The notes under the pieces are model-generated. The model worked only from the letters and a program-made list of their open reading frames with translations. It did not search any database and was not told where the DNA came from. Source: a virus (taxonomy: Duplodnaviria > Caudoviricetes). From it: DNA of 64,000 nucleotides. The position numbers were made by a program, and so were the translations under genes. The stretch lies in the IMG/VR virus record IMGVR_UViG_3300027971_004105. One strand, 5' to 3'. Shown in pieces: positions 39,687 to 44,532 of the stretch; positions within the stretch are counted from its first letter, which is position 1; every line of letters starts with the position of its first letter.

Positions 39687-39980
39687 ATGAAGTACATCAT
39701 TGACATTGACAACACAATTTGCTATAATAAAGACAGCGATTATGTCAACAGTACACCTGACATCACACGCATAGCCCGAGTTAATCAGTTGTATGATGAT
39801 GGACACGAGATTCATTATTACACAGCAAGAGGTGGCAACTCCGGCAAAGACTGGAGTGAGTTAACTCGTCAACAGTTGACTGAATGGGGGTGCAAATTCC
39901 ATTCAGTAAATTTGGGCAAACCAGTGTATGATGTTTGGGTGGATGACAGAGCAGTAAACGCAAAGGATTTTTTTAAATGA
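39687..39980 (+). CDS. Minimal HAD phosphatase (capsule-biosynthesis-phosphatase-like)
   Basis: IIDIDNTI, YYTARG, GKP.YDVWVDD. Confidence 0.75.
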   Translation: MKYIIDIDNTICYNKDSDYVNSTPDITRIARVNQLYDDGHEIHYYTARGGNSGKDWSELTRQQLTEWGCKFHSVNLGKPVYDVWVDDRAVNAKDFFK

Positions 39981-41035
39981 GAATAGATTATAACATATAT
40001 TTGGATTACGCAGACGTACTATTAAAACCCAAAAGATCCACACTGAGTTCAAGACGTGATGTGGACATGACTAGAGATTTCACATTTCGTAACAGCAAAC
40101 AGCAGATCTCATTTGTGCCTGTGGTTGCCAGCAACATGGATGGTGTGGGCACATTCAGTATGGCCAGAGTATTACAAGAATATAAACTTTTAACTGTGTT
40201 AAGAAAACATTACACCATTGCGGATTGGGACAGAGCAATAGGCACAGGATTAAAATTACAATATGTGAGTGCGTGTACAGGCACAGGAGCCATGTGGGAC
40301 AACAATTCACCAGACTATCAAACTTTAAAAAAAGTTATGGAGAAATATCCAGATGTGAGCATGATTACCATAGATGTGGCCAATGCTTATCATGAACAGT
40401 TTGTGGACTTTGTTAAGAGAATAAGATCTGAATTTCCCGACAAGACCATCATAGCAGGCAATGTGGTATCACCAGAGATGGTGGAAGAATTAATCATCAA
40501 TGGAGCAGACGTGGTCAAAGTGGGCATAGGTCCAGGATCAGTGTGTACCACTCGTACACAAACAGGAGTGGGAGTGCCACAGTTTTCTGCCATCATAGAA
40601 TGTGCTGATGCTGCCAACGGAGTGGGTGGACACATCATTGCTGATGGTGGTTGCACACAGCCAGGAGACATAGCCAAAGCATTGGCTGCAGGTGCTCACA
40701 TGGTGATGTTGGGTGGCATGCTGGCAGCACATGATGAATCAGAATTAGAATTGAAAGATGGCAAAAGAGTATTCTACGGCATGAGTTCCGAATCAGCATT
40801 TGAAAAACACGGCGCAAGAAAAGATGGCTACAGAGGCACTGAAGGCAAAACAGTAAAATTAGACAACAAAGGTCCTGTGAAAGACACTGTGGAACAGATA
40901 TTGGGCGGAGTCAGAAGCACTTGCACTTATATAGGAGCAAGAAGAATCAAAGACATGCCCAAGTGTGCTCACTTCGTGAGAGTGAACAATGTGATCAACA
41001 GAGTTTTTGACAGATATGAAACAAATAAAAATTGA
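39977..41035 (+). CDS. guaC: GMP reductase
   Basis: LDYADVLLKPKRS, ASNMD, IDVANAY, KVGIGPGSVCTTR, ADGG, FYGMSS, ILGGVRSTCTYIGA. Confidence 0.93.
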   Translation: MRIDYNIYLDYADVLLKPKRSTLSSRRDVDMTRDFTFRNSKQQISFVPVVASNMDGVGTFSMARVLQEYKLLTVLRKHYTIADWDRAIGTGLKLQYVSACTGTGAMWDNNSPDYQTLKKVMEKYPDVSMITIDVANAYHEQFVDFVKRIRSEFPDKTIIAGNVVSPEMVEELIINGADVVKVGIGPGSVCTTRTQTGVGVPQFSAIIECADAANGVGGHIIADGGCTQPGDIAKALAAGAHMVMLGGMLAAHDESELELKDGKRVFYGMSSESAFEKHGARKDGYRGTEGKTVKLDNKGPVKDTVEQILGGVRSTCTYIGARRIKDMPKCAHFVRVNNVINRVFDRYETNKN

Positions 41036-41255
41036 TCTAATTCTCAAATGGATAGCCACAGCCATATTGATTGTGGGCACATTTGTTAATGCTGGATTTC
41101 CAGAACTATATCCCGTGGGACCAATACTGTTGGCCTTGGGTGGAGTATTTTGGTTGGTAGTTTCATTGATTTGGCGAGAACCTGCACTGATTGTGACCAA
41201 CATTGTGTTGACATGTGTGGGCTTTGGTGGTATAATACTATATTACATTAGATAA
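41007..41255 (+). CDS. Small membrane protein
   Basis: Three hydrophobic helices. Confidence 0.6.
   Translation: MTDMKQIKIDLILKWIATAILIVGTFVNAGFPELYPVGPILLALGGVFWLVVSLIWREPALIVTNIVLTCVGFGGIILYYIR
41208..41236 (+). promoter_or_regulatory. Consensus sigma70 promoter for the DNA polymerase
   Basis: TTGACA 41208-13, 17 nt, TATAAT 41231-36 with extended -10 TG. Confidence 0.82.
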
Positions 41256-41307
41256 GGCATAATCGGCCATAAGCGATTATTTGGTATGTGTCAGCCTTAA
41301 ATGACAC
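41253..41307 (+). ncRNA. Pseudoknotted 5' UTR element of the DNA polymerase gene
   Basis: UAAGGC 41253-58/GCCUUA 41294-99; AUAAUCG 41259-65/CGAUUAU 41274-80; GUGUCA 41288-93/UGACAC 41302-07. Confidence 0.65.
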
Positions 41308-41319
41308 GGATTGGAACAT

Positions 41320-43992
41320 ATGAGTTACATAGACGCATTCTTCGATAGAAATCAAGATTTTATTCGTGTGGTAGAACGCAAAGAAGGCAAAAGAATCTAC
41401 AAAGAATATCCCATTAGATACACATTCTTTTATGAAGATGCCAATGGCAAATTCAAAAGCATATATGGCAATTCTCTCAGCAGAATTGTCAGCAAGAGCA
41501 CCAAAGACTTTCATAAAGAATTAGCCATCAATAGAAACAAAAAATTATTTGAATCCGATATCAATCCCATATTTCAATGTCTCAGTGCCAACTACCTCAA
41601 TCACGATGCTCCCAAACTGAATGTGGCATTTTTTGATATAGAAGCAGACTTTGATCCTGAAAAAGGATTCGCTGATCCCTCAGATCCGTTCATGCCAGTC
41701 ACAGCTATCACTGTGTATCTGCAATGGATAGACAGCATGGTGACTTTTGCACTGATTCCTAAAACCTTAACACTTCAACAAGCCAAGGATCAGACCAAAG
41801 ACACAAAGAATTTATATCTGTATGAGCGTGAAGCAGACATGTTGCAGGCATTTTTAGACATAATAGAAGATGTGGATGTGTTGAGCGGTTGGAACTCAGA
41901 AGGTTATGACATGCCTTATCTAGTGAATAGAGTCAGCAAAGTATTGAGTAAAGATGACACTAGACGTTTTTGTTTATGGTCACAGATGCCTAAAAAAAGA
42001 ACATTTGAAAAGTATGGCAGAGAACAAGAAACTTATGATTTAATAGGCAGAGTACACATAGACAGTTTGGAACTGTATAGAAAATATACCTATGAAGAAC
42101 GCCACACATACAGACTGGATGCCATAGGAGAAATTGAATTGGGAGAAACAAAAACTGTGTATGAAGGCACGTTGGATCAACTGTACAACAATGACTTTAA
42201 AACTTTTATAGAATACAACAGACAAGACGTGCAACTGTTGAACAACTTGGATAAAAAACTTAAATTTTTAGATCTCAGCAATGAACTAGCTCATGCCAAC
42301 ACAGTGCTGATGCAGACCACTATGGGTGCTGTGGCAGTGACCGAACAAGCCATCATCAATGAAGCACACAAAAGAGGATTGCAGGTTCCCAATAGACCAC
42401 ACAGATCCGATGAAGAAAACACCACAGCAGCAGGTGCCTATGTGGCATTTCCCAAAAAAGGACTGCATGATTGGATAGGATCCATGGACTTGAATTCACT
42501 GTATCCAAGTGTGATCAGAGCTCTAAACATGGCTCCTGAATGTGTGGTGGGGCAATTGCGTAACACCTACACAGAATCATTTCTACAGGATCAAATAAAT
42601 CTACAAGGCAAATCATTTGCGGCAGCATGGGAGAATAAGTTTGGCAGTTTGGAGTATGAATATGTGATGACTCAAAGACGAGACATGCCTATCACAATAG
42701 ATTGGGAGAATGGTACCACAGAAGAAAAAAGTGGCGCAGAGATTTACAAGATGATATTTGACAGCCACAAGCCCATCATGATCAGTGCCAATGGCACCAT
42801 GTTTACCACAGAGTTTGAAGGTGTGATTCCTGGATTATTAAAAACATGGTATCAAGAAAGAACTGAGATGCAGGCCATGAAAAAGAAAGCACAAAGTGCC
42901 AGCAATCAAGCAGAGATAGAATTTTGGGACAAAAGACAATTGGTTAAAAAAATTAATTTGAACTCACTGTATGGTGCCATACTTAATCCAGGCTGTAGAT
43001 TCTTTGACAAACGCATAGGACAATCAACCACACTCACAGGTAGAACCATCAGCAAACACATGGCAGCAAAAATAAATGAAGTGATCACAGGCACATACGA
43101 TCATTTGGGAGATGCTGTGATATATGGTGATACAGACTCTGCTTATTTCAGTGCTTATAAAGTTTTAAAGAAAGACATTGATGCTGGATTGATTCCATGG
43201 ACCAAAGAGAGTGTGATCAAACTGTATGATCAAGTGGCTGAAGAAGTCAACAACAGTTTTAAAGCATTCATGGGTGAAGCATTTCATTGTCCCAAAACAA
43301 GAGCAGAAGTGATTCAAGCAGGACGTGAATCCATCAGTGAAACAGGATTGTTTATCACTAAAAAAAGATATGCTGTGTTGATATATGAATTGGAAGGCGA
43401 TCGTATGGATGTGAATGGTAAACCAGGCAAGGTAAAAGCCATGGGATTGGATCTTAAACGTTCAGACACTCCGGTGTTTGTGCAGGATTTTTTAAGTGAA
43501 ATATTACTGATGGTGCTGACCAAATCAGACGAAAAAGCAGTATTGGAAAGAATCAGCACATTTAGAAATGAATTTAAATTGCGTCCAGGTTGGGAAAAAG
43601 GTTCTCCCAAACGTGCCAACAATGTGGCAGATTATCAAAGAAAAGAAAAAGCACAAGGCAAAGCCAACATGCCAGGACACGTGCGAGCTTCAATCAATTG
43701 GAACACATTAAAACGTATGAACAATGATCGTTACAGTTTGGAAATTGTGGATGGCATGAAAGTGATTGTGTGTAAACTCAGAAACAATCCTTTGGAGTAC
43801 ACCAGTGTGGCCTATCCCACAGATCAATTGAGAATACCTCAATGGTTTAAAGAATTACCTTTTGATCACTCAGCCATGGAAACCACAGTGATCGATAGTA
43901 AATTGGGCAACCTGTTGGGAGTGCTGGATTGGGATATTCAAAGCACAGAAACAGGCAACACATTCAACACATTATTTGACTTTGGAGATTAA
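41320..43992 (+). CDS. gp43: Family B DNA polymerase (T4 gp43-like)
   Basis: FFDIEAD (ExoI), GWNSEGYD, DLNSLYP, KINLNSLYG, YGDTDS, KKRYA; start MSYID at 41320. Confidence 0.95.
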   Translation: MSYIDAFFDRNQDFIRVVERKEGKRIYKEYPIRYTFFYEDANGKFKSIYGNSLSRIVSKSTKDFHKELAINRNKKLFESDINPIFQCLSANYLNHDAPKLNVAFFDIEADFDPEKGFADPSDPFMPVTAITVYLQWIDSMVTFALIPKTLTLQQAKDQTKDTKNLYLYEREADMLQAFLDIIEDVDVLSGWNSEGYDMPYLVNRVSKVLSKDDTRRFCLWSQMPKKRTFEKYGREQETYDLIGRVHIDSLELYRKYTYEERHTYRLDAIGEIELGETKTVYEGTLDQLYNNDFKTFIEYNRQDVQLLNNLDKKLKFLDLSNELAHANTVLMQTTMGAVAVTEQAIINEAHKRGLQVPNRPHRSDEENTTAAGAYVAFPKKGLHDWIGSMDLNSLYPSVIRALNMAPECVVGQLRNTYTESFLQDQINLQGKSFAAAWENKFGSLEYEYVMTQRRDMPITIDWENGTTEEKSGAEIYKMIFDSHKPIMISANGTMFTTEFEGVIPGLLKTWYQERTEMQAMKKKAQSASNQAEIEFWDKRQLVKKINLNSLYGAILNPGCRFFDKRIGQSTTLTGRTISKHMAAKINEVITGTYDHLGDAVIYGDTDSAYFSAYKVLKKDIDAGLIPWTKESVIKLYDQVAEEVNNSFKAFMGEAFHCPKTRAEVIQAGRESISETGLFITKKRYAVLIYELEGDRMDVNGKPGKVKAMGLDLKRSDTPVFVQDFLSEILLMVLTKSDEKAVLERISTFRNEFKLRPGWEKGSPKRANNVADYQRKEKAQGKANMPGHVRASINWNTLKRMNNDRYSLEIVDGMKVIVCKLRNNPLEYTSVAYPTDQLRIPQWFKELPFDHSAMETTVIDSKLGNLLGVLDWDIQSTETGNTFNTLFDFGD

Positions 43993-44532
43993 ATGGCAAG
44001 ATACGGCATGGTAGATTTGGAAACATTAGGCACAAGACCAGATGCTGCCATATTGACTGTGGGTGCTATCAAGTTTGATCCACATTCAGACTCAGAACCC
44101 TACGAAGGTAGATATTGGAGATTAAATGTAGATGAACAAACAGCATTGGGTAGAACAGTGGACGAAGGTACCATTGAATGGTGGGGCCGACAGGCACCTG
44201 AGATACGTGATGAGGCATTGGGAGACACAGATCGTGTGATCATAGCAGACTTTGCCAAAGAATTCAACAAATGGTGTGTGGGATTGGATCAGCTGTGGTG
44301 TCAAGGTCCATTGTTTGATTATGCCATCATACAAAATTTATATGACCAAGCTCGCACTCCTGTGCCTTTCAACTATTGGCAAATCAGAGACAGTCGCACA
44401 CTGTTTGATTTGATGCCACAGGATCCTAGAAAGAGCATACAGAGCAGTCTACACAACGCATTGGCTGATTGTTACTATCAAGCCAAATGTGTGCAACAAG
44501 TTTTTAAACATTTAGGAGTAAAGAAAAAATGA
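43993..44532 (+). CDS. DEDDh 3'-5' exonuclease (DexA-like)
   Basis: MVDLETLG, WCQG..FD, RDSRT, HNALADC. Confidence 0.85.
   Translation: MARYGMVDLETLGTRPDAAILTVGAIKFDPHSDSEPYEGRYWRLNVDEQTALGRTVDEGTIEWWGRQAPEIRDEALGDTDRVIIADFAKEFNKWCVGLDQLWCQGPLFDYAIIQNLYDQARTPVPFNYWQIRDSRTLFDLMPQDPRKSIQSSLHNALADCYYQAKCVQQVFKHLGVKKK

Follow-up and report, generated by a model that had tools for sequence, protein, structure and literature searches.

Only in a few T4-type coliphages is it understood how a replicative DNA polymerase regulates itself via its own mRNA, and there is as yet no solved structure of a polymerase-RNA complex (PMC3014915). The gene 43 operator of RB69, AGAC[AAUAACUC]GUCU, is located directly 5′ of AAAGGA with its loop end 16 nt from the AUG, and that of T4, AGCCU[AAUAACUC]GGGCU, has its loop end 23 nt from the AUG. 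The operator loops contain UAAC in T4 and RB69, UAAA in RB49, and CAAC in a variant obtained by systematic evolution of ligands by exponential enrichment (SELEX) (PMC3014915). The gene 32 operator of T4, T2, and RB69 is likewise a structured leader, through which a replication gene of the phage is autoregulated. Here, a 64-kb stretch of viral DNA (IMG/VR record IMGVR_UViG_3300027971_004105, Caudoviricetes; the whole stretch of 64,000 nucleotides is referred to as the window) was analyzed, in which the mRNA leader of a family B DNA polymerase gene (polB; 41320–43992, + strand, ATG at 41320 and stop at 43992; PF00136 and PF03104) contains two similar hairpins. The encoded 890-aa protein is of the T4/RB69 gp43 type and is a full-length homolog of RB69 gp43 (27% identity, 849 aa, E 7e-64). 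Comparison of sequences from related phages provides good support for both hairpins being a real, conserved, and previously uncharacterized structured RNA of the polymerase leader. The leader may be a cis-acting translational operator of the polymerase operon, most likely bound by the polymerase itself, and a probability of roughly 0.5 is assigned to this reading.

The layout of the locus resembles that of the T4 and RB69 gene 43 operators. In both cases, the leader of a gp43-type family B polymerase gene, which follows an early sigma-70-type promoter, carries a short hairpin with an 8-nt loop (stem of 4–5 bp there, 4–8 bp here) just 5′ of the Shine-Dalgarno sequence, and there is one copy per genome. 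The end of the start-proximal loop lies 14–21 nt from the start codon in 108 of the 109 distinct leaders compared, a range to be set beside the two distances given above. A pyrimidine-A-A loop word is common to the gene 43 operators and the element (YAAR). In contrast, the loop of the element reads GCCNYAAR instead of AAUAACUC, with YAA at loop positions 5–7 rather than 3–5, and an invariant GGY found 6–9 nt 5′ of the loop has no counterpart in the gene 43 operators. T4 and RB69 need a single hairpin; the element usually comprises a pair of modules, or else a lone module accompanied by a different conserved hairpin. The T4 gene 43 locus gave no match to the single-unit model of the element (R2) and shows no detectable sequence homology to it. 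In view of the different register, the GCC, and the lack of such homology, the element is not filed in the gp43 operator family, even though it would work like a gp43 operator. The gene 32 operator differs in that it precedes the gene of the single-stranded DNA-binding protein (SSB) and folds into a genuine pseudoknot of two helices with an unstructured A/U-rich tract on its 3′ side, whereas the crossing helix of the element, described below, is unconserved.

Two conserved hairpins in the polymerase leader

Two units make up the element in the window, both on the + strand. Unit A begins with the 5′ flank AAGGC (41254–41258), in which the conserved GGY (41256–58) lies 7 nt before the loop GCC, and continues with hairpin A (41259–41280), whose stem AUAAUCG/CGAUUAU (41259–65/41274–80; conserved core 41261–65/41274–78) closes the 8-nt loop GCCAUAAG (41266–73). 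Unit B begins with the 5′ flank UGGUAU (41282–41287), in which the conserved GGU (41283–85) lies 8 nt before the loop GCC, and continues with hairpin B (41288–41307), whose stem GUGUCA/UGACAC (41288–93/41302–07) closes the 8-nt loop GCCUUAAA (41294–41301) and can take up an additional pair, U41287–G41308. The 12 nt between the end of hairpin B and the ATG at 41320 form the ribosome-binding stretch GGAUUGGAACAU (41308–41319, + strand), a degenerate Shine-Dalgarno sequence. In the subclade of the window (L002–L010, L025, and L036 among the relatives' loci), GGAUUGGAACAU or AGAUUGAGACAU stands in place of the AGGAG that is usual in most relatives, and the Shine-Dalgarno sequence of the polymerase gene is thus unusually weak in this subclade.

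The folding energy of the window leader alone is no better than chance (minimum free energy −15.3 kcal/mol, z = −0.44 against shuffles), and its significance comes only via relatives. The comparison set comprised about 200 polB loci, out of hundreds of relatives in IMG/VR, with polB 68–99% identical; a 47.8-kb IMG/VR record shows no difference from the window across 501 bases (41000–41500). In the alignment of 37 two-hairpin leaders, 85.6% of the cells are paired and double changes are found in 12 of the 14 pairs. The covariation score of these leaders is 0.421, compared with 0.188 for shuffles, none of which reached 0.421 in 500 trials, and with 0.05–0.17 for slid controls in which the partners were moved by 1–3 columns. 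RNAalifold independently predicted the two hairpins A and B. Each of the four core pairs is formed in 98–100% of 101 distinct start-proximal units, by various pair types (e.g., CG 43, UA 40, and GC 16; AU 59 and GC 38), and the G–U pairs (35 of 587) fit the mRNA strand only.

Loop positions G1, C2, C3, A6, and A7 show no change in any of the 101 distinct start-proximal sequences, giving the consensus GCCAYAAR and GCCNNAAR; the commonest loops are GCCAUAAG, GCCAUAAA, GCCACAAG, and GCCACAAA. Of 109 leaders, 94 have a loop of 8 nt and 15 a loop of 9 nt, and the stems range from 4 to 8 bp. The distance from GGY to the loop GCC is 7 nt in unit A (6 nt in some two-unit leaders) and 8 nt in unit B, and stays within 6–9 nt in nearly all modules. 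A Shine-Dalgarno-like word is found 3′ of the element in 92 of the 109 distinct leaders, 18 of which have TTG as the polB start codon. The combination of variable stems with invariant loops points to sequence-specific recognition rather than mere stability.

The last point bears on the idea that the leader is purely structural, serving as a 5′ stabilizer against RNase E-type decay or as a ribosome standby or enhancer platform. Such a role would suit hairpins that start ~15 nt into the predicted transcript, a flank AAGG that reads like the 5′ half of a full Shine-Dalgarno sequence, and an element that stays at the operon head when a gene is inserted, as described below. Stability, however, would not call for an invariant GGY and five fixed loop bases next to stems that vary freely, and the folding energy is at the level of shuffled sequences, so that a purely structural leader is rather improbable. 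A DNA-level reading, either as an origin or as a cruciform, was ruled out by the G–U pairs, by loops specific to one strand, and by the constant spacing to the start codon. A terminator or attenuator was also ruled out, as neither hairpin has a 3′ U-tract.

The element occurs in three architectures. In the first, which is the window form, unit A precedes a UGGUAU-type unit B; the second consists of two AAGGU-type units; and the third consists of a different conserved hairpin followed by CAUGUAGAAGGU and a single unit. The common core can be written as RRGGU, 2–3 nt, a 4–6-bp stem, GCCAYAAR, the returning stem, 0–4 nt, and the Shine-Dalgarno sequence. Tandem modules that are near-identical to each other are found in L108–L113, L120, and L121. 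Single-unit leaders with the distinct upstream hairpin are located at 1440–1500 of L160, in the same region of L171, L183, L192, L208, and L211, and at about 1300–1370 of L092. This upstream hairpin takes the form AGAGUCG-YUC-ACUUUAC-GAR-C, GUUG-CCUUAAG-CAAC, or a CGCC...GGC stem; its stem covaries (GCUC/GAGC, GUUC/GAAC, and GUCC/GGAC), and the conserved word CAUGUAGA lies on its 3′ side. In some of the single-unit leaders, but not in others, pairing between GUAGA and the loop UUUAC would be possible.

The crossing helix

An earlier reading of this stretch from its letters alone (the original prediction) listed three helices of 6, 7, and 6 bp together with a GCCA/UGGU complement in the leader, noted that the element ends 12 nt before the ATG with a weak Shine-Dalgarno sequence, and described the whole as a compact pseudoknot. 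The parts are indeed present in the window. In addition to hairpins A and B, UAAGGC (41253–41258, + strand, the 5′ strand of the crossing helix) forms a perfect 6-bp helix with GCCUUA (41294–99) in the loop of hairpin B, across hairpin A, and GCCA (41266–69) can optionally pair with UGGU (41282–85). The spacing and the weak ribosome-binding stretch GGAUUGGAACAU were confirmed as well. Conservation of the helices in relatives was borne out for hairpins A and B by the covariation described above, but not for the crossing helix, of which the three outer pairs are unpaired in 16–25 of 36 relatives.

Across 52 two-unit leaders, the crossing helix measures 3 bp in 35, 4 bp in 9, and 5–6 bp in 8. The 5–6-bp form occurs exactly where loop B is GCCUUAAR, in which UU stands opposite the constant AAGG; it does not exceed 3–4 bp elsewhere. 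In relatives at 92–95% polB identity (L005–L009 and L025), loop B contains GCCUCA or GCCCCA while the 5′ strand is still UAAGGC, and the helix decays to 3–4 bp with no compensating change. One-unit leaders cannot form the crossing helix at all. In the window, the full helix leaves 2 nt (41300–01) to bridge 6 bp beside hairpin B, which is judged sterically implausible from the usual loop-length rules of H-type pseudoknots. A single compact pseudoknot, formed by UAAGGC and the hairpin B loop across hairpin A, would account for the perfect 6 bp of the window (−6.4 kcal/mol) and the 5–6 bp of the eight leaders mentioned above, but it has been largely refuted via relatives and is now very improbable. 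The six-pair helix is a peculiarity of the window subclade that is unconserved beyond GGY:GCC. The locus thus provides a cautionary case, in which a perfect 6-bp pseudoknot helix of one genome was lost on comparison with relatives.

Regarding the remaining GGY:GCC pairing, GG and GCC never vary, and the sole change is Y = U or C opposite G; the pairing is therefore undecidable by covariation. Several partners of the loop GCC were tried, namely, the flank of its own module, the flank of the other module, and the GCCA/UGGU complement, and none showed a compensating change; changes of UGGU to AGGU in the leaders are accompanied by no matching change in loop A. The words GGY and GCC (41256–58/41266–68 and 41283–85/41294–96) are also a glycine codon and the tRNA-Gly anticodon, a likeness that is probably a coincidence, as the loop is without the U-turn context of an anticodon loop.

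If the GGY of each module paired with its own loop GCC, the resulting 3 bp would be stacked on the stem with the AYAAR strand in the minor groove, and the leader would be a tandem mini-pseudoknot riboswitch, in which a small ligand (a nucleotide or a 7-deazaguanine precursor) changes the access to the Shine-Dalgarno sequence. The invariance of GGY and GCC at a spacing of 6–9 nt in nearly every module favors this view, and the implied loops (L1 of 2–3 nt, L2 of 0 nt, and L3 of 5 nt) would fit an H-type pseudoknot. A 3-bp flank-loop helix with an A-rich strand is the topology of preQ1-I riboswitches, which would be possible in the ~25-nt modules, and two similar tandem hairpins just before the Shine-Dalgarno sequence are arranged in the element as in guanidine-II (mini-ykkC) riboswitches; the tandem near-identical modules mentioned above recall cooperative riboswitches. 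On the other hand, the 3-bp helix is weak by itself (−1.2 to −2.6 kcal/mol), its pairing lacks covariation, and the conserved nucleotides differ from those of preQ1-I and guanidine-II. The loops of the element, unlike those of the guanidine-II type, cannot kiss (GCC versus GCC). The Rfam search advised by the original prediction found no family in the window leader (E up to 10) or in the loci of six relatives (E up to 1), preQ1-I, -II, -III, and guanidine-II included. QueD (PF01242) homologs are found in three motif-bearing genomes, which does not discriminate between the readings, and the TGT family (PF01702) had no match in the contigs of five relatives, which gives no read-out on a link to 7-deazaguanine. 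Taken with its association with a single gene (see below), a riboswitch of this kind is unlikely, and it is quite unlikely that the ~25-nt GGY-stem-GCCNYAAR modules are, specifically, H-type mini-pseudoknot aptamers paired as a tandem riboswitch that gates polymerase translation on a small molecule.

A putative translational operator of the polymerase operon

The element is specific to the polB leader within the sequences searched. The two-hairpin model (R1) scored 76.6 bits at 41251–41310 and no more than 10 bits at any other place in the window (filters off), and R2 scored 39.2 bits at the leader (hairpin B) and at most 12.6 bits in the rest of the window. With E up to 1, R2 found exactly one site, the polB leader, in each of a complete 357.6-kb genome and contigs of 326.7, 119, 116, and 107 kb, and R1 (E below 0.001) found the polB leader only in three contigs of 64–119 kb. 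The 145-kb contig of L069, of which the leader is without the element, gave no match to R1. A context-free pattern scan of IMG/VR (CATGTAGANGGT, 6–7 nt, GCCAYAA), for which about six chance matches were estimated, listed 80 loci. In 68 of them polB begins 14–23 nt past the match, and in 11 it begins ~620 nt past the match, with one inserted gene in between; the remaining locus is a stemless chance match within a coding region. As the pattern was built from this clade, exclusivity is shown within the clade, not across all phages. An intergenic survey of IMG/VR reported 8,495 unnamed candidate structured-RNA models, which may include the element; its main text makes no mention of a polymerase (PMC10690425).

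A riboswitch class is normally found upstream of multiple genes that belong to one pathway, whereas this element is found at polB operons only (79 of the 80 pattern-scan loci). In several loci, it lies ~620 nt upstream of polB, directly before an inserted gene of 207–236 aa, with polB next. Such an insertion moves the element to the inserted gene while polB stays in the operon, and polB is therefore the one product that is always linked with the element. The inserted gene is located at 738–1361 of L149 and 804–1514 of L180, and is also present in L024, L052, L060, L073, L076, L151, and L154; the start of polB overlaps or abuts it, and the element then heads the inserted gene. In L149, its product has a weak match to 2OG-Fe(II) oxygenases (PF13759), below the curated cut-off of Pfam. 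A 41-aa open reading frame lies between the element and polB instead in L115, L116, and L129.

In the proposed mechanism, the mRNA would start at an early-type promoter and fold at once into two modules, each consisting of a single-stranded GGY, a 4–7-bp stem without sequence constraint, and an 8-nt loop in which G1, C2, C3, A6, and A7 are fixed, and the second module would abut the ribosome-binding site. A protein would recognize the invariant loops together with the GGY flanks, and the bound protein would block the 30S subunit at the adjacent Shine-Dalgarno sequence and start codon. The likeliest binder would be the free DNA polymerase, which would limit its own synthesis to the need of replication, like gp43 of T4 and RB69. 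Free-sequence stems, invariant loops and flanks, the fixed position relative to the ribosome-binding site, and the single copy per genome together give the leader the signature of a specific operator; binding, the polymerase as the binder, and translational repression are inferred. An autogenous operator, which the original prediction had also proposed, is the best available reading in view of the gp43 homology and the RB69/T4-like layout. The accompanying suggestion that the RNA is more complex than the T4 operator holds for the two hairpins, the invariant loops, and the GGY flanks, and fails for the crossing pseudoknot.

Several points weigh against an operator bound by the polymerase. The loop GCC..AA and the register of its YAA are unlike those of the gene 43 operators, as mentioned above, and part of the T4-like polymerases do not autoregulate (PMC3014915). 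Two modules with GGY flanks are not obviously needed by a monomeric polymerase and would be in keeping with a protein dimer or a tandem sensor of a ligand. The element is also absent from the polB leaders of Phosso, Atu_ph07, XbC2, and GAP32, in which R2 had no match. These jumbo phages are the nearest cultured phages, with polB 42–48% identical. Since they are jumbo phages and one relative is a complete 357.6-kb genome, the phages carrying the element are considered to be an abundant clade of uncultured aquatic jumbo phages (lake and marine). The locus of Vibrio phage 2.275.O also gave no match to R2; its annotated gene start is possibly wrong, and the leader was not re-read.

The invariant loops and flanks, which call for a specific reader, and the two similar modules, which would suit a dimer, would also be expected of an operator for another trans-acting protein of the phage or host, e.g., a small RNA-binding protein dedicated to repression or activation. 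Such a regulator would have a single target, as there is one site per 357-kb genome; T4 RegA and other general repressors have numerous sites (PMC3014915). Moreover, no candidate gene is consistently adjacent to the element, as the upstream neighbor encodes a small membrane protein and the inserted genes differ among loci. A low probability is accordingly given to a different protein, and the polymerase is retained as the preferred binder.

Promoter, neighboring genes, and implications

A sigma-70-type promoter precedes the element (41208–41236, + strand), with TTGACA at 41208–13, a 17-nt spacer, and a TG-extended TATAAT at 41231–36. It sits within the final codons of the upstream gene and is one of two perfect TTGACA-17-TATAAT matches in the 64 kb, where 0.04 would be expected by chance. 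The transcript start is predicted at ~41243–44, ~7 nt past the −10 hexamer, which would give a leader of 76–77 nt, in agreement with the ~75 nt and the promoter of the original prediction. Promoter-like sites (at least 10 of 12 positions) are found upstream of the element in 27% of the relatives' leaders, compared with 0.2% of control windows within polB, and the −10 element ends mostly 22–25 nt 5′ of the first hairpin stem. The hexamers are retained in relatives although the spacer sequence changes. Because of this persistence and the enrichment over control windows, the proposed polB-leader promoter is regarded as credible. In four lake RNA libraries, contigs cover parts of 40400–42400, one spanning 40631–41420 and another starting at 41257; as such contigs cannot show transcript ends or exclude DNA, nothing was inferred from them.

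The upstream neighbor of polB encodes a 79-aa small membrane protein of the DUF6552 family (41016–41255, + strand; PF20189, E 6.9e-07), of which the stop codon TAA (41253–55) overlaps the 5′ flank of unit A. A DUF6552-like gene adjoins the element upstream in distant relatives too, e.g., at 477–731 of L180. The start of the DUF6552 gene overlaps by 20 nt a gene of the IMPDH/GMP-reductase family (39977–41035; PF00478, E 2.7e-70), and the other perfect TG-extended TTGACA-17-TATAAT promoter of the window (39700–39728, + strand) lies ~250 nt before the latter. Directly 3′ of polB is the gene of a 179-aa protein with an Rv2179c-like 3′–5′ exoribonuclease fold (43993–44532, + strand; PF16473, E 9.9e-36).

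The element can serve as a marker for the start of the polymerase operon in metagenomic contigs. If its partner were a small molecule, the leader would represent a new riboswitch class, and a mini-pseudoknot element of this kind would be among the smallest riboswitches and provide a direct metabolic check on phage DNA replication. In the case of the preferred reading, an operator bound by the polymerase, the leader would provide binding and structural studies with a defined RNA and a defined candidate partner protein. It would also add to the gene 43 operators a second, sequence-unrelated, and much better sampled example of polymerase autoregulation, with hundreds of natural variants and clear rules on which bases can change.

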